DNA of 17,932 nt from UHGV virus genome UHGV-1599718; one strand, written 5' to 3'. Within the stretch, counting starts at the first letter, position 1. Each line of letters opens with the position of its first letter. The notes below the pieces were generated by a model that saw only the letters and a list, made by a program, of their open reading frames with translations, ran no database searches and was not told the DNA's origin. Of the stretch, positions 3,585 to 17,932 are shown piece by piece. The translations under genes were made by a program, and so were the position numbers. This DNA is from a virus.

Positions 3585-4096
3585 TGATGGCCCCCGTCAT
3601 TTCTAGTGCTTTTCACCGTGCGGCTTCTTAAAAACCTGCCATCACGAACAACAGACACTTCTCGTTTACCCAACCTCATTTCACGGCGGTAACATTCAGA
3701 AAATGCCTCGTCCGGCATCATATAAATGCGACGCTTCGCCTCCGTATCCAGAAGGGAACGGCTTGGGGTTACATATAAGAACGACTCATCAATAGGGACA
3801 AAACCACGAGCAAGAATTGCTGGCAGAATGCCAGGAAGAACGCAGAAAACAGCTCCACGATGCAGCAACATCTGGTACTCCATGACCTCCGTTATCCCCG
3901 TGACGACTGTTACGGTGTCACGTCTGTTACGGCTGGCAACCAGTCGCTGCACACGTCCAATTTTCTGATCTACAGATAGATGTTTGCTATCGTTATCAAT
4001 ATGATCGATAACAAATCCTTTAATCGTTTGATCAAGGTAGTGCACCACCTGCGATTGAATCTGGTGATTATCACCAAAGAAGGCCAGAATCATCAT
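3581..4096 (-). CDS. hypothetical phage protein (171 aa)
   Basis: ORF with ATG at 4096 overlapping the stop of the Cro-like gene; no family recognised. Confidence 0.55.
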   Translation of the reverse strand: MMILAFFGDNHQIQSQVVHYLDQTIKGFVIDHIDNDSKHLSVDQKIGRVQRLVASRNRRDTVTVVTGITEVMEYQMLLHRGAVFCVLPGILPAILARGFVPIDESFLYVTPSRSLLDTEAKRRIYMMPDEAFSECYRREMRLGKREVSVVRDGRFLRSRTVKSTRNDGGHQ

Positions 4097-4587
4097 TCCT
4101 CAAGCCTCCCAAGTGCTGAACGCCGGGCGTTGCTAATCTCCTTATGAATCAGCTCGATATCGCTGGAATCTTTATTCTTAAGCTCCAGCACGGCAATCGC
4201 ATCACGAACCTCTGAAACGGTTACGTGTGAGTGTTTCCAGCGAGCAATGAATCGCGGACCGCGTAGATTGCAACGCTCCGCAGGCATCCCCAGCTCAGAG
4301 AAAACCGCTTTCAGCCTTGATAAGCAGTTAACAGGGAGATTCCCTTTGATCTTGTTCTGCCGAACCGATGTGCCATCGCTACGCTGGCGCTGACGTTCGG
4401 CAAAATCTGCCGCCCATTGCTGGACGTTAATCCGGCCTTCCGAATACGCCACCAGCAGCGTCAGGTTATCCGCACGAGGGAATCTCTCGAAGCGATACCA
4501 GGCACCAATCAGTGATGACGTAAAGCCAAACTTTCTGGCAACACCAATTTGGCCTCCATTTTCGTCAACCCACTCCTGAAAGGTCAT
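4093..4587 (-). CDS. Cro-like HTH DNA-binding protein with C-terminal extension (164 aa)
   Basis: First gene of the leftward operon, divergent from the CI-like gene. GGAG RBS 9 nt upstream of ATG 4587. N-terminal HTH-like segment GQIGVARKFGFTSSLIGAWYRFER. Confidence 0.55.
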   Translation of the reverse strand: MTFQEWVDENGGQIGVARKFGFTSSLIGAWYRFERFPRADNLTLLVAYSEGRINVQQWAADFAERQRQRSDGTSVRQNKIKGNLPVNCLSRLKAVFSELGMPAERCNLRGPRFIARWKHSHVTVSEVRDAIAVLELKNKDSSDIELIHKEISNARRSALGRLEE

Positions 4588-4606
4588 TTAACGAACTCCA
4601 GTTAAA

Positions 4607-4642
4607 ACCACGATATGTGGTATTAAAACCACATATCGTGAG
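4607..4642. promoter_or_regulatory. tandem operators O1 (ACCACGATATGTGGT, 4607-4621) and O2 (ACCACATATCGTGAG, 4628-4642)
   Basis: Two 15-bp ACCAC-N5-GTGGT dyads with centres 21 bp apart, between divergent CI-like and Cro-like genes. On the minus strand they fall in the spacer and -10 region of a TTGAAA-N17-TTTAAT promoter candidate. Confidence 0.6.
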
Positions 4643-4709: not shown

Positions 4710-4724
4710 ACCACTAAATGTGGT
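4710..4724. promoter_or_regulatory. operator O3 (ACCACTAAATGTGGT) upstream of the CI-like gene
   Basis: Same dyad architecture, 38 bp upstream of the start at 4762; adjacent TATAAA at 4729-4735. Confidence 0.55.
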
Positions 4725-4761: not shown

Positions 4762-5418
4762 ATGAAAAGCAACGACGAGAACATCAAGAAAGAAATAGGT
4801 CTGCGCATTCAGACTCTACGGAAACAATCCGGCATGACTGCCGGAGATCTCCAGCAAGTCACTGGAATAGGCTTAAGCACCTTGCAGAACTATGAGGCCG
4901 GATTAAGACAACCATCTATACCTGCCATCAAGAAAATCGCGCACGCCCTGAAAGCATCAGCGCCTTATATCGCGTGCTTAACAGATAACCCGTTCCCACC
5001 CCAGAATACTAACGCTCCTGTTATTCCTGGGCTTGTAGCTATAAAAAATGACATAGCATCGCACGCCGGAGAAAAACCAGTGCTGGCGATAGAACAGGAG
5101 ATTCTACGAAGCAAGAACATCAACCCATCGTCTCTGTCAGTTCTCCAGAGCAACGATGAGTTAATGTCACCAACAATATCCCCTGGCTCCCAAGTCCTGA
5201 TTAATACAGACGATACAGAGATTCATGAGGGGATCTATGCCCTTGAAGACAGAAATGGCCTGGTTGTTTTGAGGCACTGTAGAGTCATACCGGGTGACAA
5301 TGCTGTTATGCTGTCAACCGAAAGGGATGCTGAAATGAACACTAAGCATCTGAATAACGAGGAATTTAAGCGTTATAAAGTTCTTGGCCGCGTAGTTAGT
5401 GTTGTCAACTGGTTATGA
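4762..5418 (+). CDS. CI-like prophage repressor (HTH_XRE N-terminal domain plus S24 LexA-like peptidase C-terminal domain, 218 aa)
   Basis: HTH segment IGLRIQTLRKQSGMTAGDLQQVTGIGLSTLQNYEAG. C-terminal region ELMSPTISPGSQVLINTDD ... GDNAVMLS ... KVLGRVVSV matches the Ser/Lys autopeptidase layout of LexA/CI proteins. Confidence 0.8.
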   Translation: MKSNDENIKKEIGLRIQTLRKQSGMTAGDLQQVTGIGLSTLQNYEAGLRQPSIPAIKKIAHALKASAPYIACLTDNPFPPQNTNAPVIPGLVAIKNDIASHAGEKPVLAIEQEILRSKNINPSSLSVLQSNDELMSPTISPGSQVLINTDDTEIHEGIYALEDRNGLVVLRHCRVIPGDNAVMLSTERDAEMNTKHLNNEEFKRYKVLGRVVSVVNWL

Positions 5419-5460: not shown

Positions 5461-5475
5461 ACCACATTTTGTGGT
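5461..5475. promoter_or_regulatory. operator O4 (ACCACATTTTGTGGT) upstream of the 5511 gene
   Basis: Same dyad, immediately followed by TTGACA (5477-5482) and TATAAA (5494-5499), 36 bp before the ATG at 5511. Confidence 0.5.
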
Positions 5476-5890: not shown

Positions 5891-5908
5891 AGCGGGCTAA
5901 CGCCCGCT
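5891..5908 (+). terminator. stem-loop, candidate terminator after the 5511 gene
   Basis: agcgggc-taac-gcccgct directly after the stop at 5885, followed by an AT-rich run (ttatatgattat). Confidence 0.5.
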
Positions 5909-6013
5909 TATATGATTATAGATTTATATAATTATATAAAACGCTTTTCATCCGCCAAAAAGTTGGTTATGCTTATCTCATTCTATAAATATAGATTTAT
6001 AGAATTATATAAT
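5908..6013. promoter_or_regulatory. two AT-rich repeat clusters (copies c at 5908-5939 and d at 5982-6013) upstream of the ParA gene; candidate operator or centromere-like site
   Basis: ttatatgattatagatttatataattatataa and tctataaatatagatttatagaattatataat; TCTATA-AA-TATAGA is a perfect palindrome. Confidence 0.4.
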
Positions 6014-6035
6014 CAAACACATGGAGTCTCGACAA

Positions 6036-6689
6036 ATGACTATATCTGTAGGTATTTTCAACGGAAAAGGCGGCGTAACCAAATCAACCATTGCTCGTGC
6101 TTTAGCAGTTGCTTATGCAAAGGCTGGCTGGAATGTATGCCTGATCGATATGGATGTGCTTAACGGAACGGTAACGCGTTGGGTACAACGCAGAATGGCC
6201 AACAATATCGAACCTGCAATCGCGGCGCAGCCGTGCGGCACGCCATCACAAGTCCAGAAAATCATCGAATCAGAAGTATACGACCTGGTTATCGTTGATG
6301 GCGGTGCCTACGCATCTGAATCAGTACCGAAGCTATCTGAATTTCTGGATATGGTTATTTTGCCAACCAGATTCTCTACCGATGACCTGGAAACCACCGT
6401 TAACACTGCTCACGGTATCGTTAAAAAGGGTGTACCAATCAAGAAAATTTGCATGGTGTTTTCCGGCGCGGCTGAAAACGAAGCTGACTATATTGAAGCC
6501 CAAGAGTACCTGGCTAATACGCCATACTTTGTTGTTGATAAGTACATTCCCCACAAGCCAGCTCTGAGCAAAGCTCAGGATAAGGGCTTAAGCCTCATTG
6601 AGTGCTCATACGTTGCGCCACGCAAAAAGGCAGACGACGTTATTCAGGGGATTATCAACCAGCTTGAGGCTCTGACTACTGCCGCGTAA
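6036..6689 (+). CDS. parA: ParA/ParF-type partition ATPase (deviant Walker A)
   Basis: GKGGVTKST deviant Walker A at the N-terminus and DLVIVDGG Walker B-like motif. ATG 6036 has GGAG 9 nt upstream; the track start at 6021 lacks an RBS. Confidence 0.85.
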   Translation: MTISVGIFNGKGGVTKSTIARALAVAYAKAGWNVCLIDMDVLNGTVTRWVQRRMANNIEPAIAAQPCGTPSQVQKIIESEVYDLVIVDGGAYASESVPKLSEFLDMVILPTRFSTDDLETTVNTAHGIVKKGVPIKKICMVFSGAAENEADYIEAQEYLANTPYFVVDKYIPHKPALSKAQDKGLSLIECSYVAPRKKADDVIQGIINQLEALTTAA

Positions 6690-6720
6690 TATATAATTAT
6701 AGTTTTATAGATTTATATAA
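6688..6720. promoter_or_regulatory. AT-rich repeat copy e between the ParA gene and its partner
   Basis: aatatataattatagttttatagatttatataa starting at the ParA stop codon. Confidence 0.4.
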
Positions 6721-6732
6721 GAGGGGATACAC

Positions 6733-7193: not shown

Positions 7194-7209
7194 ATTCAAC
7201 CATAAAAAA

Positions 7210-7225
7210 GGCCCCCGAAGGGGCC
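7210..7225. terminator. bidirectional intrinsic terminator
   Basis: ggcccc-cgaa-ggggcc flanked by an A-run on the left; on the minus strand the stem is followed by ttttttatgg. Confidence 0.5.
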
Positions 7226-7231
7226 TAATCG

Positions 7232-7354
7232 CTACTTGCTGCTAATGTTTATCGTCACATTCAGAGCGTTATCAGTAATCTTCCAACCCTCCCCATGTGG
7301 CGTAAACAAAGCTCCAGTAACAACGATAAAAATACACATACAGTATTTTTTCAT
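7232..7354 (-). CDS. possible small hydrophobic peptide (40 aa); speculative
   Basis: Internal ATG of ORF 7232..7414 gives MKKYCMCIFIVVTGALFTPHGEGWKITDNALNVTINISSK; ends at the minus-strand face of the 7210-7225 terminator. Weak RBS. Confidence 0.2.
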   Translation of the reverse strand: MKKYCMCIFIVVTGALFTPHGEGWKITDNALNVTINISSK

Positions 7355-7752
7355 TGTATGGCCCTTACAGGCCGTTTCACGGCATCCCCACCGACGAAAA
7401 CAACGCGAGAGCAAGCACGGCTGCTTGTGCTTGCATGTACGGCAACGGAGAATCCTCCCCTAAAGTCGGTGCCCGGGTGCGAATCGGCGGGAAGGTCCAC
7501 AGGTATTTTACGATTATTTTAAGATTAGTAATAGGAAAGAAATTAAACGAAAAAACTCGTTTATTTTCACAAAATCAGTAACCTACCCACAATCTGTGAG
7601 TTTGCAGGCACAACAAGAACCACAATTTTTTGAAGCATAATAGTGGACTATTATTACCTTTTGGGTAAAATTAACTTGCTGCTTGTGCTTGCGTGGTTGT
7701 TTATACAACAACGTAATGCTGAAAGGACCGCGAATCCGATCAGCACGAAAGA

Positions 7753-7779
7753 ACCGTCCTCAATAGGGCGGTTTTTTTG
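7753..7779 (+). terminator. intrinsic terminator candidate in a non-coding region
   Basis: accgtcct-caat-agggcggt (one G-U pair) followed by TTTTTTT. Confidence 0.5.
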
Positions 7780-7925
7780 TTTCTGCCTACCAATAAACCC
7801 ACGCTATGTGGTTGTCTCTGTTAAAATCCCGCCGTATTGACATGAATGCGCCATTGGTGGACACTTTCCGAGCCGTAGCAAAATCTACGGTCGGGATTGG
7901 AACCCCGATAATCATCATGGCGCAT

Positions 7926-7946
7926 ACCGCGTTAGCGGTTTTTTTA
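7926..7946 (+). terminator. intrinsic terminator candidate in a non-coding region
   Basis: accgc-gtta-gcggt followed by TTTTTTT. Confidence 0.5.
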
Positions 7947-8110
7947 TGCGTAAAGCACTGCTACACCCAAATTATGGTGGGGCGTGCGGGGGAGTCGTAA
8001 GACTCGCCGGATTCCATGGTGACCGGTAGTTCCAACCCTGTACGTCTCACCACCCAATGATTGGAACCAGACGGTGGTGAGTATCCTTAACCTTTAAGGG
8101 AACTATCACC

Positions 8111-8302
8111 ATGACAAACTTACCCCATGACTATTACGTCAACCTCGTAAAGATCCTTCTCAAGAAAGCCTCATACGCCGATAAATTACGCTTGGCTGAA
8201 ATCATCGAGCGCGAAGCTATGCGCATCGCCAGCAACGATAACGCTGTTTCTGACGCAAAAATCTCCCTCGTAACCAAAGTAGTTATGGGAGGTGCAAAAT
8301 GA
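8111..8302 (+). CDS. small hypothetical phage protein (63 aa)
   Basis: ORF whose TGA overlaps the ATG of the downstream Rha-like gene (ATGA); weak RBS. Confidence 0.45.
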   Translation: MTNLPHDYYVNLVKILLKKASYADKLRLAEIIEREAMRIASNDNAVSDAKISLVTKVVMGGAK

Positions 8303-9441
8303 AAACGCTTCCGACCGTTAACACCCTACAGCCTATCCTGCATAACCAGATCCCCGTTATCACTAGTGAACTTCTGGCGCAGTTATACGGAACAAAAATC
8401 AAAAACATTTCTGATAACTTTCTGAACAACTCGACGCGATTCGTAGCCGGAAAGCATTACTTTAAAATTGAAAAAAACGAATTACGCGAGTTCAAGAACA
8501 GACCCGAAACAATCGGGTTAGTTGGTAAAAATGCCCGCTCCCTAATTCTCTGGACCGAACGCGGGGCTGCACGTCACGCTAAAATGCTCGAAACCGATCA
8601 GGCGTGGGATGTATTCGAACGGCTGGAAGACTGCTATTTCAACCAGAACGCGCAAACGGCCGCGACCGTAACCGTCTCGCCAAACAATGCTCGTGAGGTT
8701 GTCGATACGCTCAACGCCAAACCGATGTTTTACATTAAGGTGTGCAATAACGAGCCACTCACAACCTCAGCCGATGTTGCCCAGGCATTCAGCACCACAA
8801 ACAATTCCATCGTTATGGCCATCGATGCGTTACGCATTCCTCGCACAGCTGCGGCACGTCATTTCTTTAAAGAGCAACGACCGCTGGAAGGAAGCGACCG
8901 CGAAATAACAATCTATCGCATGACAAAAGATGGATTTACCTTGCTCATGGAAAGTATCGACGGTCCAGGCGTGAAAGATATCAAGCTGGCCTACATTGAA
9001 GCCTTTAACGCTATCAGCAGCGTGTTAAAAACACAGTACGAGCGTGATCTGGCTAAACGACTGTACCAGGAAAAAACGATTATCCGCGCGGCAACAGAGC
9101 ATAATCGGCTATTAACGGAACCGAACTACAGGAAGGAACTAATCAAGGAGTTTGACAAGGCAACAGGGAAAACCAAAGCGGCGCTAAATCTGCCAGCAAT
9201 GACTCAGGAAAATGTGATATCAGCCTTACTTCTTGATCTGCTCAGAAACGCCAGAGCACTTATCAGCTTTGACGAAAACCTGAATCCTCAGCTCAAGCTA
9301 CTACCACCGACAGGCAAAGTAGTCGACCAGGCTGATCACAACAGCATACTCAGCGTTCTGGATGCAAACCTGCCAGCCAGGACACTACAGGATCTGATAA
9401 AAACATGTGCTGATAAGCTGGCACAGAAAAGCAGACCATAA
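8299..9441 (+). CDS. phage regulatory protein Rha family, antirepressor-like, with N-terminal ORF6N/KilA-N-like domain (380 aa)
   Basis: GGAGG RBS. N-terminal region (IPVITSELLAQLYGTKIKNISDNF ... SLILWTERGAARHAKM) resembles the ORF6N domain. Central region (PLTTSADVAQAFSTTNNSIVMAIDAL ... ITIYRMTKDGFTLLMESIDGPGVKDIKLAYIEAFNAI) resembles the Rha domain. Confidence 0.75.
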   Translation: MKTLPTVNTLQPILHNQIPVITSELLAQLYGTKIKNISDNFLNNSTRFVAGKHYFKIEKNELREFKNRPETIGLVGKNARSLILWTERGAARHAKMLETDQAWDVFERLEDCYFNQNAQTAATVTVSPNNAREVVDTLNAKPMFYIKVCNNEPLTTSADVAQAFSTTNNSIVMAIDALRIPRTAAARHFFKEQRPLEGSDREITIYRMTKDGFTLLMESIDGPGVKDIKLAYIEAFNAISSVLKTQYERDLAKRLYQEKTIIRAATEHNRLLTEPNYRKELIKEFDKATGKTKAALNLPAMTQENVISALLLDLLRNARALISFDENLNPQLKLLPPTGKVVDQADHNSILSVLDANLPARTLQDLIKTCADKLAQKSRP

Positions 9442-9447
9442 CTACAA

Positions 9448-9465
9448 GGGGCTACGGCCCCTTAC
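9448..9465 (+). terminator. stem-loop, candidate terminator after the Rha-like gene
   Basis: aagggg-ctac-ggcccctt 6 nt after the stop, followed by a T-rich stretch. Confidence 0.5.
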
Positions 9466-9637
9466 TCTTTTCTCTCTTATCAACACCAGAGACTTTCTGA
9501 AAATCCTTTCGAATAGCGTCAGCGTCACGCGCCAAGCCCATACTGGAACGTGTCGCCATATGACGAAAATGATCAACTGCCGGAAACAAAGAAATAATGG
9601 ACCCAATAGCTTGCAGCAAACTCGCTTTTCTACGCAT
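9452..9637 (-). CDS. possible small protein (61 aa); speculative
   Basis: ATG at 9637 with GGTGGA about 7 nt upstream gives MRRKASLLQAIGSIISLFPAVDHFRHMATRSS...; lies in an otherwise ORF-poor region. Confidence 0.2.
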   Translation of the reverse strand: MRRKASLLQAIGSIISLFPAVDHFRHMATRSSMGLARDADAIRKDFQKVSGVDKREKSKGP

Positions 9638-10180
9638 AATAATTCCACCATAACCGATAACCACCCTTCAGACACAACCCCCCCTCCCCCCATACAGGGT
9701 GCCCTTTACCGGAGTTCCGGCCCCTTCTCAAAAGCATCAAAAAAAGCTCGAGATCGAGTACCGGAACTCATGCCACCAGATAGCTCCACATCGTTTCCAA
9801 TGCTTCGCCGCCGTGTGCGCCCTGTGGCCCACAATCATGCCATTGGTCGTCTGATATACCTTCTTCTGCTCATAGAGCACAGGCGAGTTGTCGCACTCCT
9901 GCCTTTCTCAGACTCGACTTAGTTTAGATCGCTGTTCCTGGCTTGCGTCAGCACACTTTCCCCTTGTACGCATACCCGCGCGCCACTCCGCCCAAAAACA
10001 CCGAACCCAACGAAGTGGCAAAGACAACGACGCGAGCGTGAGTCTGAAATGGGCACCAGTAAAAAAGGGGTTGCAGGCGCAAAAAGATTTGATTATCTTT
10101 AGACGCAAGAAAGCCGCCCCAATCAAGAGGTGTCTTTTTAAATCCAGCCTACCAAGCAAGATTTAAATTTCAGACTGAAA

Positions 10181-12285: not shown

Positions 12286-12388
12286 AATGTTAGCGCCAGT
12301 GATATAAGACGGTAATTCACCATTTGGATTGTCCGCTCCACCCAACATGTTGTTTCCTTAAGGTTCCCACACCAGAAAGGACATCAAC

Positions 12389-14358
<1,970 letters not shown>

Positions 14359-14443
14359 CGAAAGTATTTTAGCGGGCATGAAAATGGCAAATAACGGTTA
14401 AAAATCGTGGCGTTGACAATAACAAACCTCATATTTGCATGTT

Positions 14444-14802: not shown

Positions 14803-15129
14803 TTCGTATAAGACAAGTTTTCTATACCTAATAGGAAATCATGATTCTTACGTTTTATCGCGTTCTGATGGCTACTGTGTGCGTATTTATCGACGTTTAT
14901 TGATAAAGCTCACCCCTTCCTCCTGCAAAGCCCGGCCGTAGGCCTTATTTCGGCCTTATATAAATTGATTTTGTATAGTTCGAAACGCGCCGTTTCGAAA
15001 AGGATGATCAGGCTGCTCCATGCCTCCGGCAAGTGCCGGAGGAGGTATATTTGAGCGTAGCGATTCGAACCGGCGCGAGCTTTAGCTCGCTGCAAGGGCG
15101 AACATATTCACAGGCAAAGCCTGGGTAAG

Positions 15130-15370
15130 TTAAATAAAGAAAGTCTTAATAAAAGAAAGTGATTTTGCATTTATTTGTTTAGTGCATCTATTATAAAAAA
15201 CCATTTGCATATATGTATCAAAACTGTGGATAACTTTATTAGCCGATGCCTGTAAAGGCGATATTTTCGCTGTGTTCAGGTTTAGAGAAAATTAATTTAG
15301 ATTGTTTTTTGAACAGGTATTTTATTGCGACGTAGATAATCCTCCGGTAAAACCGGATTCATCATTCAGG
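15130..15370. other. putative replication origin region of the IncFII-type replicon (AT-rich, DnaA box, short direct repeats)
   Basis: Lies immediately downstream of the RepA stop. TGTGGATAA (complement TTATCCACA, the DnaA box consensus) at 15225-15233; AAAGAAAGT at 15136-15144 and 15152-15160; ATTTGCAT repeated. Confidence 0.4.
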
Positions 15371-15374
15371 TGGG

Positions 15375-16223
15375 TTAATGTTGGAGTGATTTCCAGGTCT
15401 TTCTTAGCCTGTTATAACGCTGCTCAACGAGGGATCGTAAATATGCAAGGTCAGCACCAGGATACATGCCATCAGCAAATTCCTGACTAACCTCTCTGGT
15501 GATTTGATGACGAAGTTCGGCCTCTCCCTTTTCACGAACAAGACGCGCAGCTCTCTCCGCTGCTTTCTGTTTTGCCTTTATCTCTCTGGCCGTCTTCCTC
15601 TGACGCCATACATTCTCCATCTGCTCCTGAATAACAATACGCTTATAATCAGCCTCCGTTATCGCTTTTTTAAGCCGTTCGCTATTCTTCGCATTGAAGT
15701 AATTAAGTTTCTGGCTAACCGCACGTCTCCATGCTTGTTCAGTAATACCAACGGTTTCCAGCAGTTGATCACGAATCTCTATTTTCGCTGGCCAATACTG
15801 TTTATTCACCCGATCCCAGCGACGTTCATAATCAATAAAACCTAACGCTTTCAGTTGCGACAACGCCCTTGTACAGCGCGTTATAGACTTGTTCCCAGCT
15901 TCGGATACGGTAGACAGGCCGCAAAAATCAGCCAACGCCTCAGCACTGGCCAGAACCCGCTTAGAAATGATGTTTACATGGTGCAAAATCGCAGCAATCA
16001 CAGCATTAATCGCCCGACGACGATGCTCGTTTATCCGGCGTTTCCGCTCTGACGGTTGATTAACGTAGAACGCAACCTCACACGTAAGATCACGACCATT
16101 AATGCGCTGTAAAGCATCAGATAATACCAGCGGCAGCTTGTGCGTATGGTGCTTTGGAGGCTGGAACTCCGGCGACAAATTACAAACGTAAGCTGAACGT
16201 AGAGACGGCATTGGTCTATCCAT
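15375..16223 (-). CDS. repA: IncFII-type plasmid replication initiator RepA (RepFIIA family, about 283 aa)
   Basis: Segment RRRAINAVIAAIL ... ADFCGLSTVSEAGNKSITRCTRALSQLKALGFIDYERRWD aligns by eye with R100/R1 RepA1 (RRRAIDALLQGL ... AIECGLATESAAGKLSITRATRALTFLSELGLITYQTEYD). Start placed at MDRPMPSL (16223); an in-frame upstream ATG at 16361 would add 46 aa and may instead be a leader ORF. Confidence 0.8.
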   Translation of the reverse strand: MDRPMPSLRSAYVCNLSPEFQPPKHHTHKLPLVLSDALQRINGRDLTCEVAFYVNQPSERKRRINEHRRRAINAVIAAILHHVNIISKRVLASAEALADFCGLSTVSEAGNKSITRCTRALSQLKALGFIDYERRWDRVNKQYWPAKIEIRDQLLETVGITEQAWRRAVSQKLNYFNAKNSERLKKAITEADYKRIVIQEQMENVWRQRKTAREIKAKQKAAERAARLVREKGEAELRHQITREVSQEFADGMYPGADLAYLRSLVEQRYNRLRKTWKSLQH

Positions 16224-16267
16224 ATGTTCGCTCTTGCGTCCACGGAAAACCAACGTATAATGGGAGT

Positions 16268-16353
16268 TGTCGAGGCGCCCATGGATTGTTGTTGGTTTTT
16301 GTTTCTTTCCGTGGATGTCGCAAGAAGCCCGCAGATTTATCTGCGGGCTTTTT
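16268..16353 (+). ncRNA. candidate CopA-like antisense RNA of the repA leader
   Basis: Plus-strand TTGCGT (16234-16239), 16 bp spacer, TATAAT (16256-16261), then about 85 nt ending in the hairpin agcccgcag-atttat-ctgcgggct plus TTTT (16326-16353). Antisense to the region upstream of the repA start. Confidence 0.45.
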
Positions 16354-16397
16354 GTTTCCATATCTGGTCACTTTTCAACCAGACACCCACAATCATA

Positions 16398-16412
16398 ACC
16401 ACGTTACGTGGT
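16398..16412. promoter_or_regulatory. operator O5 (ACCACGTTACGTGGT) in the repA promoter region
   Basis: Same ACCAC-N5-GTGGT dyad as O1-O4, about 175 bp upstream of the repA start, adjacent to a TATGAT -10 candidate on the minus strand. Confidence 0.5.
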
Positions 16413-16542
16413 TTTAAGAGAACTCTACCACAACACTTTCGGTCATGCACGAAGTCTCTCACTGATCGAACGATAATCCACCAGTAAAAGGATCTAAATT
16501 GGATCTCGTTTTGCGAGCATCATACTACTGGCCTAACTCCAG

Positions 16543-17097
16543 TCAATGATTCCCAGCCGGAAACCTGCGGTAAAGCGTGGATAAGGTAACATCGAAGATA
16601 ATCGCTATCCGCTTACGTGAAACACCATTCGCAATAAGCCTTCCGATCTGTTCCCATTGCTCTGGTGCCAATTTTGAGCGGCGTCCTCCTATCCTGCCGT
16701 TAGCCCTTGCCACCGCCAATCCTGCACGCGTTCTTTCAATCATATTTTCCCGCTCCATCTCTGCGACTGCACTCAGCATCGTGTAGGCAAAGCGGCCAAT
16801 TGAAGTGCTAATTTTTATCCCTTCCGTAATCGAAATAAACTCAATGTTGTTTGATAAAAAATAGTTTAGTAAATCAACAAGATGAATCAGAGAACGCCCC
16901 ATTCGGTCCAGCTTCCAGACAATAACCGTATCGCCCGGCCGTAACACCTTCAGTAGCTTATCAAGTCCTGGTCGTTTTGATTTAGCACCGGATATTTTAT
17001 CTTCAAAAATCCGGTCACATCCTGAACTCCTGAGCGCCTCCAATTGTAATTCCAAATTCTGGTCAAAAGTTGACACCCTCGCATAACCATATTGCAT
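16543..17097 (-). CDS. serine recombinase, DNA invertase of the Hin/Gin/Cin/Pin family (184 aa)
   Basis: N-terminus MQYGYARVSTFDQNLELQ with catalytic-Ser context; VWKLDRMGRS; C-terminal HTH (RKRIAIIFDVTLSTLYRR). Near-collinear by eye with e14 Pin. Confidence 0.9.
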   Translation of the reverse strand: MQYGYARVSTFDQNLELQLEALRSSGCDRIFEDKISGAKSKRPGLDKLLKVLRPGDTVIVWKLDRMGRSLIHLVDLLNYFLSNNIEFISITEGIKISTSIGRFAYTMLSAVAEMERENMIERTRAGLAVARANGRIGGRRSKLAPEQWEQIGRLIANGVSRKRIAIIFDVTLSTLYRRFPAGNH

Positions 17098-17107
17098 ACT
17101 TTCTAAA

Positions 17108-17932
17108 CCGCGATTGTTGCTAAAAGCGGGAAAAAATATCGTTCAGACGACACAGAGGCAATTCGCAAAAACCTCGGTTTACAGGAAACGGTAAATAAGG
17201 CTGGTAACGCCGTTCAAAAGACAGGTGATACCTTGTCCGGCGGACTTACTTTTGAAAACGACTCAATCCTTGCCTGGATTCGGAATACTGACTGGGCAAA
17301 GATTGGATTTAAAAATGATGCCGACAGCGATACTGATTCATACATGTGGTTTGAAACAGGCGACAACGGAAATGAATATTTCAAATGGAGAAGCCGCCAG
17401 AGCACCACAACAAAAGACCTGATGAATCTTAAATGGGATGCTTTGTCTGTCCTTGTTAAAGCCCTTTTCAGCAGTGAAGTAAAAATATCGACAGTCAATG
17501 CACTGAGGATATTTAATTCATCTTTTGGTGCCATTTTTCGCCGTTCTGAAGAATGCCTGCATATCATCCCGACACGAGAGAATGAGGGAGAAAATGGTGA
17601 TATAGGGCCACTACGCCCCTTTACGCTTAATCTCAGAACTGGTCGGATAAGCATGGGGCATGGTCTTGATGTTACAGGGGATATATTTGCAAACCGTTTT
17701 GCAATTAACAGTAGTACCGGCATGTGGATTCATATGCGTGACCAGAATGTTATTTTGGGACGCAATGCGGTATCCACCGATGGTGCACAGGCATTACTTC
17801 GTCAGGACCATGCTGATCGCAAATTTATGATTGGTGGACTGGGAAATAAGCAATTTGGCATCTACATGATTAATAACTCAAGGACAGCCAATGGCACCGA
17901 TGGTCAGGCGTACATGGATAATAACGGGAACT
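17108..17932 (+). CDS. tail-fibre C-terminal variable segment (no start codon of its own; 3-prime end beyond window); probably the silent alternative copy inside an invertible segment
   Basis: Open frame from the stop at 17105 to the window end, absent from the ORF track because it has no in-window stop. Translation ... NRFAINSSTGMWIHMRDQNVILGRNAVSTDGAQALLRQDHADRKFMIGGLGNKQFGIYMINNSRTANGTDGQAYMDNNGN resembles phage tail-fibre C-termini. Confidence 0.6.
17162..17187. other. gix/hix-like recombination crossover site
   Basis: TTCGCAAAAACC-TC-GGTTTACAGGAA: the right half equals the Mu gix half-site and the left half matches the TTATCAAAAACC consensus at 9-10 of 12 positions. It lies 65 bp from the invertase start, inside the tail-fibre reading frame. 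Confidence 0.65.

Follow-up and report, generated by a model that had tools for sequence, protein, structure and literature searches.

The stretch of DNA that we analyse here (the window, 17,932 nts) is, by genome comparison, part of a myovirus phage-plasmid of about 48 kb. Its repA region (15300-17100) shares 98-99% identity with about 60 circular plasmids of E. coli, E. albertii, E. fergusonii and Klebsiella aerogenes, roughly 46-52 kb in size with two outliers of 32 and 94 kb, which include pHN68-3 and one plasmid from E. coli strain ATCC 25922 (NZ_CP009073, 48.5 kb, 98% identical). The same region is 98% identical to phages vB_YpM_39, 41 and 44, isolated on Yersinia pestis EV76. The annotation of pHN68-3 reports terminase, portal, capsid, sheath, tube, baseplate, holin and lysin, which amount to a complete contractile-tail phage, with an invertible tail-fibre segment, and it also reports the plasmid genes parA, repA and toxin-antitoxin pairs; it is this combination that identifies the window as derived from a myovirus phage-plasmid. 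No recognisable initiator besides RepA and no protelomerase are annotated in pHN68-3. In PLSDB, the family comprises 62 plasmids from E. coli, E. albertii, E. fergusonii, Salmonella and Klebsiella aerogenes. A literature search for this phage-plasmid group found neither a name nor a study; pSLy3 proved to be SSU5-related.

A CI-like repressor gene (4762-5418, plus strand) encodes a protein of 218 aa with an HTH_3 domain and a degenerate S24-like C-terminal domain, and it is followed by orf124. A divergent region of 175 bp separates it from a Cro-like early gene (4093-4587, minus strand), whose 164-aa product belongs to PHROG 7452, has no Pfam hit, and has an N-terminus that by eye resembles a Cro/YdaS-type HTH. 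ParA is encoded at 6021-6689 (Pfam). An immI-like module similar to that of P1 is found by Rfam and Pfam at 7859-9441 (plus strand). It consists of an a1b1/isrK-like RNA (isrK, 70 bits) and a C4 antisense RNA at 7970-8057 (84 bits), with an Rfam span of 7859-8057, followed by a 63-aa ORF and an Ant-like protein with ORF6N and pRha domains (8299-9441). Pfam also identifies the IS21-family genes istA (12389-13561) and istB (13558-14358), and a Hin/Pin-type invertase (16543-17097, minus strand) with its stop codon at 16543. The IS21-family insertion (12288-14418) is absent from pHN68-3 and lengthens the distance from the repressor gene to repA by 2.1 kb; the pHN68-3 alignment across it has a 4-bp overlap, suggestive of a target duplication of that length.

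The replication gene repA (15375-16211, minus strand; start placed by homology) encodes a 278-aa protein that matches PF02387 (IncFII_repA) with E = 1.3e-43 and 149.8 bits. A longer form (15375-16361, minus strand), with 326 aa in RefSeq and 328 aa in the ORF list, would run its first ~50 codons through the antisense-RNA region. We reject the 328-aa ORF, as indels in relatives break its N-terminal frame; the gene probably starts at 16211 or 16223, and the RefSeq start of the Salmonella homologue is the equivalent ATG. Opposite the repA leader, in the position of CopA, we predict a countertranscript (16234-16357, plus strand) with a promoter TTGCGT-16-TATAAT (16234-16261), a stem-loop and a strong terminator hairpin. 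Its fold energy is -43.1 kcal/mol (z = -5.7). The promoter and stems are conserved, and four pairs show compensatory changes, three of them in the terminator. Downstream of repA, an oriR-like region (15100-15233, minus strand) has a perfect DnaA box TTATCCACA at 15233-15225, about 145 nt after the repA stop, and then AT-rich DNA, an assignment made from sequence only.

The original prediction called this replicon IncFII-type. That description holds for the Pfam family and for the layout of the replicon, and it does not extend to the RepA sequence, which is at most 37% identical to other PLSDB replicons, or to the antisense RNA, for which Rfam searches of the whole window and of the leader alone give no CopA-like match above threshold. 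In a tblastn search of RepA against PLSDB (E <= 1e-20, 157 records), identity falls from 83% to 37% outside the phage-plasmid group. The same prediction had noted the lack of a CopB-like gene upstream of repA, and inspection of the ORFs from the invertase to repA agrees: there is no plausible one between the invertase stop and the repA leader.

What does lie between the invertase stop and the repA leader is the dyad ACCACGTTACGTGGT at 16398-16412, with arms and spacer ACCAC-GTTAC-GTGGT. Its 15 bp form a perfect palindrome centred on the middle base, and it is upstream of repA, given the minus-strand orientation of that gene. Read on the repA strand, the order is GTGCAT, 17 nt, TGGTAGAGT, TCTCTTAAA, ACCACGTAACGTGGT. 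We assign by eye a predicted proximal promoter P2, with the extended -10 element TGGTAGAGT (16422-16430, minus strand) of the form TGnTAGAGT, and the weak -35-like hexamer GTGCAT (16445-16450, minus strand) 17 nt upstream of it. The P2 start would then be near A16415/16414, which places the dyad at about +4 to +18. A second predicted promoter, P1 (16519-16546, minus strand), lies upstream at the 3' end of the invertase gene; it reads TTGACT-16-TATGAT and has 10/12 consensus matches. A consensus promoter scanner flags only P1 in this region, not P2. Another TATGAT (16397-16392), directly after the dyad, was considered as the repA -10 element and rejected because it is not conserved: relatives have TACGAT, TATGAA, TAAGTA, TAAGAA or TGCGAA at that position, and the second immunity class described below has no equivalent. 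Between the predicted P1 and P2 there are three GATC sites at 16502, 16491 and 16464 (16464-16505), two of which are AGATCC repeats 11 bp apart. GATC clusters are found at the matching place in most relatives, the second immunity class included, and may provide a Dam/SeqA input to repA transcription.

The arms of the repA dyad recur at a small number of other places in the window. Allowing at most one mismatch to ACCAC-N5-GTGGT, there are five sites when 0.30 are expected (0.50 in a separate shuffle set for the arm pattern), and none of 200 shuffles reached five. This count supports the claimed kinship of the dyad with the sites that surround the CI-like gene. Allowing at most three mismatches to ACCACGTTACGTGGT, there are seven strand-matches when 0.28 are expected, and again no shuffle out of 200 reached seven. 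The exact 15-mer occurs once, and it is the most symmetric member of the family. Perfect arms are found at 4607-4621, 4710-4724 (38 bp upstream of the CI-like start codon), 5461-5475 (between the CI-like gene and orf124) and at repA itself; the fifth site, upstream of the immI-like module at 7798-7812, reads CCCAC...GTGGT. A degenerate operator, ACCACATATCGTGAG (4628-4642), keeps 8/10 arm positions. Its start is 21 bp from that of the 4607 operator; the two are mutually inverted, spacers included, and jointly form a 34-bp palindrome (4608-4641). The sites at 4607, 4628 and 4710 are all inside the 175-bp divergent region. Such a spread of sites, at the switch, after the CI gene and before c4/ant, is typical for the operator set of a temperate phage. 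The repA site is 10.9-11.8 kb away from the CI-flanking sites, of which 2.1 kb corresponds to the IS21-family insertion, not found in relatives.

We collected related loci from PLSDB, GenBank phages, IMG/VR, metagenomes and Logan, by means of RepA homologues and, in IMG/VR and the metagenomes, of a 21-nt leader motif. All related loci with the leader motif and enough upstream sequence present the same succession of a -10 element, 8-10 nt, and a dyad. The scripted conservation count includes 52 locus entries, with some contigs counted more than once; three loci inspected separately (L003, L031 and L067) have the same pattern. Wherever the upstream sequence of a related replicon reaches far enough, whether in one immunity class, in the other or in L067, the extended -10 element is TGnTAGAGT, the only exception being L041, with TGCTAAAGT. 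The -35-like element is retained with equal spacing in both classes, as GTGCAT, GTGCAC or ATGCAC. The dyad was originally proposed to be in the repA promoter region, and its fixed place behind a near-invariant extended -10 element argues for that proposal. In alignments with the Salmonella plasmids, which have about 75% identity in the spacer between the invertase and the leader, and with other relatives, a conserved block extends from GAAAGTG through the -10 element to the dyad arms, and the five central bases of the dyad differ. For the ACCAC class as a whole, 10/10 arm positions are invariant across five lineages, which have five different spacers (GTAAC, GTTGT, GATGT, GATGC and GCTAC). The arms remain intact with RepA identity among these lineages down to 62% (L067). 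Invariant arms around a varying spacer are the pattern expected for a protein dimer on two half-sites. Taken together, the site counts and the conservation down to 62% RepA identity rule out a chance origin of the dyad. The upstream promoter has equivalents as well, TTGACT-16-TATCAT in Salmonella relatives and L067, and TTGACG-16-TAGAAT in the second class; in L010 the P1 -35 element is missing and the dyad is still present.

The second immunity class is a Citrobacter-type heteroimmune clade, here class 2, that includes a Citrobacter freundii contig (L023) and many metagenomic contigs; the clade is represented here by L023, L025-30, L036-42, L049 and L061. Its members have a RepA about 60% identical to that of the window, a Mu-like baseplate, and an unchanged gene order from repA to CI; the CI homologue has 27% identity to the window CI-like protein. 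The repA site in class 2 is ACTACAAAACGTAGC, in the arrangement TGCTAGAGT-10 nt-ACTACAAAACGTAGC, and the switch has ACTACAA/TTGTAGT motifs in place of ACCAC. In the 20.8 kb of L023, the 7-mer ACTACAA/TTGTAGT appears six times, five of them within about 150 bp of the CI switch and one at repA. The pattern ACTAC-N5-GTAGT with at most one mismatch is found in L023 only at the switch and at repA, and a scan of the same contig finds no ACCAC-type site. In the class 2 switch, most sites are half-sites whose second arm is poor. Judged from these sequences, the repA site has changed together with the immunity specificity, from ACCAC/GTGGT to ACTAC/GTAG. An unbiased k-mer comparison of the 36 nt after the -10 element with the rest of each locus points in the same direction. 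The longest shared words fall in the CI switch: TTAAAACCACG in the window (4602-4612), TTGACTACAAAA in L023 (19559-19570) and TGACTACAAAA in L038 (8605-8636). We estimate the chance that a 12-mer from a 36-nt segment recurs inside a region of about 200 bp at ~6e-4. These words shared between repA and the switch in both classes argue more strongly than any other evidence that the repA site is read by the protein that reads the switch operators. The recognition-helix region is nearly alike in the two CI proteins (GIGLSTLQNYEAG and GIPRSTIQNYEAG), which fits a change of one base per half-site. We searched for a third immunity class with RepA homologues, in IMG/VR, in one metagenome scan and in GTDB genomes, where the sole match is a Buchnera RepA, and found only two classes; the joint change is therefore effectively one evolutionary event.

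From this we favor, with a probability of about 0.7, the reading that the immunity regulator binds 16398-16412 and represses repA transcription. The binding, the identity of P2, the sign and size of the effect and the route of induction are what we infer from sequence patterns. A regulator bound to the dyad could instead have another main job, either as an anchor for looping to the switch operators 9-12 kb off, or as a roadblock to reduce transcription that enters the repA leader from the invertase gene and P1. We consider this unlikely. The dyad is indeed isolated and single, with the highest symmetry of the family, P1 is a scanner-flagged promoter about 100 nt upstream, and long-range cooperativity between OL and OR has been raised as a possibility (PMC4997575). 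But the distance of 8-10 nt from the -10 element is fixed in both classes while the flanks and the upstream gene vary, which points to a promoter-linked function, and the dyad persists in L010 despite the missing P1 -35.

Regarding which protein would bind, the CI-like HTH repressor is the most likely binder of 16398-16412, as a dimer, with the Cro-like product possibly binding also or instead. The CI-like protein matches Pfam HTH_3 (4.5e-11), S24 below the Pfam cut-off (0.0018), and over its full length PHROG 4 'transcriptional repressor' (1e-26). Between-class identities do not separate the candidates, since the CI, Cro-like, ParA, ParG-like and orf124 products have all diverged between classes. 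It is quite improbable that the Cro-like early protein alone, or some other element-encoded factor, binds the dyad and acts in lytic growth instead of lysogeny, for example by shutting or retuning repA. The operators adjoin both the CI-like and the Cro-like genes, the Cro-like protein also differs between classes (43% identity), and in phiKO2 CB and Cro differ in site preference (PMC4997575). However, it is CB and not Cro that binds the repA operators of phiKO2 (PMC4997575), and among the genes beside the sites, the CI-like gene alone clearly encodes an HTH-plus-dimerisation repressor. As for other factors, we judged both the ParG-like protein and RepA unlikely binders. The 8-bp TTATAGAT / TTATATAA arrays at 5908-6020 and 6689-6728, which flank parA and differ from the ACCAC dyads, probably serve as centromere or operator for the partition pair formed by ParA and an 82-aa ParG-like RHH protein. 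With these repeat arrays of their own, the partition genes leave the dyads without need of the ParG-like protein to explain them. A scan of the origin region finds no dyad, which makes RepA autoregulation unlikely. That the palindrome acts as RNA, as a hairpin or attenuator in P1-derived repA transcripts or as a back-up terminator for the countertranscript, is very improbable: the plus strand does have a 6-bp stem followed by TTTT and the scanner scores the sister dyad at 7799-7811 as terminator-like, but it reports no terminator-like site in 16100-16600, the class 2 version ACUAC-AAAAC-GUAGC pairs only 4 bp, and it is the arms that agree with the switch DNA motifs, with a spacer free to vary.

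In the favored reading of repression by the immunity regulator, a dimer of the CI-like repressor would sit on the dyad at about +4 to +18 of P2, a position at which it would block RNA polymerase. In the lysogen, P1 would supply a basal synthesis of RepA, limited by the countertranscript (~16267-16357). Once the repressor is inactivated, probably by the Ant-like antirepressor, P2 would fire, the added repA mRNA would outrun the antisense RNA, and replication would rise. CI would thus take the place that CopB has at PrepA in R1, with the role that CB has at OL-repA in N15 and phiKO2. Concerning inactivation, alignment of the CI-like proteins with lambda CI and LexA (MAFFT) shows no Ala-Gly site and a gap at the catalytic Lys, and BLASTP of CI against LexA gives no alignment. 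No LexA box was found in the window; L023 has one upstream of P1 that is not conserved in L025. Without an Ala-Gly site, the catalytic Lys or a LexA box in the window, self-cleavage is unlikely, and the S24-like fold is probably kept for dimerisation only. By analogy with P1, induction through the c4/Ant module appears more likely than RecA-stimulated self-cleavage, and the immI-like module is the probable route of repressor inactivation. The dyad at 7798-7812 is about 25 bp upstream of a TTGACA hexamer.

The closest functional precedent is that of the N15 group. That a prophage repressor controls repA in N15-type elements, as the original prediction stated, is documented for N15 and phiKO2, where copy number is lowered by CB bound to two OL operators at the repA promoter (PMC4997575). 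What N15, phiKO2 and PY54 share with the window is a prophage-repressor operator at the repA promoter, here by prediction, and a repressor without the residues of self-cleaving repressors. They differ in that cB adjoins repA and there are two OL sites, whereas here there is one dyad and the repressor gene is 9.5-11.8 kb away. The N15 RepA is from another protein family and the N15 prophage is linear; here a PF02387 RepA comes with a predicted countertranscript, the related records are circular, and pHN68-3 has no annotated protelomerase.

In layout, the replicon predicted here is closer to R1/R100 (IncFII). In the R1 scheme, a constitutive promoter lies upstream of a repressible one that is proximal to repA, together with an antisense RNA, RepA and an origin further downstream (PMC5717011), and the predicted layout reproduces the two promoters, the antisense RNA, a PF02387 RepA, and an origin with a DnaA box and AT-rich DNA. 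In contrast to R1/R100, there is no copB, the predicted repressor is of the phage CI type and encoded far away, and the operator comes after the -10 element; the RepA relationship is a distant one, and in PLSDB nothing falls in the gap from 83% to 37% identity. Should P1 be constitutive, the contribution of P2 repression to steady-state copy number may be no more than auxiliary, which is what has been described for CopB in R1 (PMC5717011). A contig of a conjugative plasmid with a VirB-type T4SS (L024) has a 63%-identical RepA and, directly upstream of repA in the position of CopB, two paralogous XRE-type HTH genes (8968-9745), with a LexA-box-like sequence upstream of them. This case suggests that pairing with an HTH repressor is common in this RepA lineage.

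The likeness to P1 is in the scattered repressor sites, one of them before a c4/ant module, and in a master repressor tied to a replication function, which here is a prediction. In P1, plasmid maintenance (repA/oriR, iteron-controlled) and lytic growth (repL) each have their own replicon, of which C1 controls just the lytic one, whereas here the plasmid-type RepA is the only recognisable initiator. The C1 protein and its operators are unrelated in sequence to those of the window, and the C1 operators are asymmetric. As in lambda-type CI/Cro systems, dyad sites cluster between divergent repressor and early genes and the site shifts with repressor specificity; the CI-like protein departs from lambda-type CI in lacking the Ala-Gly site and catalytic Lys. 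CI-type repressors usually bind paired operators cooperatively, in contrast to the single dyad at repA.

Phage-plasmids have to replicate at the pace of the cell as prophages and amplify when lytic. To our knowledge, the wiring of this switch in replication is known in detail only for a few models such as P1 and N15. The arrangement in the window suggests a third solution, in which a phage CI-type repressor, acting from about 10 kb away, would occupy the CopB position of an R1-like replicon controlled by antisense RNA. A tentative extension is that one replicon serves both lifestyles, with antisense-limited RepA at low copy and CI-released repA for lytic amplification. In that case, a single circuit would comprise immunity, copy control and exclusion of homoimmune genomes that superinfect, as would follow from an operator that evolves together with immunity specificity; the resident CI would block an incoming repA promoter just as pre-existing CopB blocks the establishment of R1. 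It would also bear on how copy number, and so the dosage of cargo genes, responds to induction signals. The family is common in PLSDB plasmids and includes infectious Yersinia pestis phages, so that the prediction is easy to test in available strains, and the paired change of operator and repressor is ready material for a specificity swap.

Several other features of the window and its relatives are of separate interest. No conserved tap-like leader peptide was found in the repA leader. An ATG at 16282 opens an 83-codon out-of-frame ORF, and this start is common to the Salmonella relatives and absent in class 2. Class 2 has an additional ORF of 158-162 aa between the leader and a 277-aa repA (L023 9516-10004; L026 9528-10004), with an ATGA overlap, and the L026 copy matches PF02387. 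A DUF3560 protein has a primase-like PHROG match. Between the par genes and the immI-like module, there is a full-length Rfam match to the ryfA RNA family (7204-7500, minus strand) with 142 bits for a gathering score of 80. The segment just upstream of the immI operator (7490-7794) is mosaic with respect to L001 (10162-11128); at that segment, pHN68-3 has about 970 bp with a gene for a 190-aa HTH regulator, and the window is without that gene. Finally, the invertase (16543-17200 region) adjoins the tail-fibre segment, and a gix/cix-like crossover sequence AAACCTCGGTTTACAGGAA is found near 17172-17192; together, the invertase and the crossover sequence are consistent with a P1/Mu-like host-range switch.
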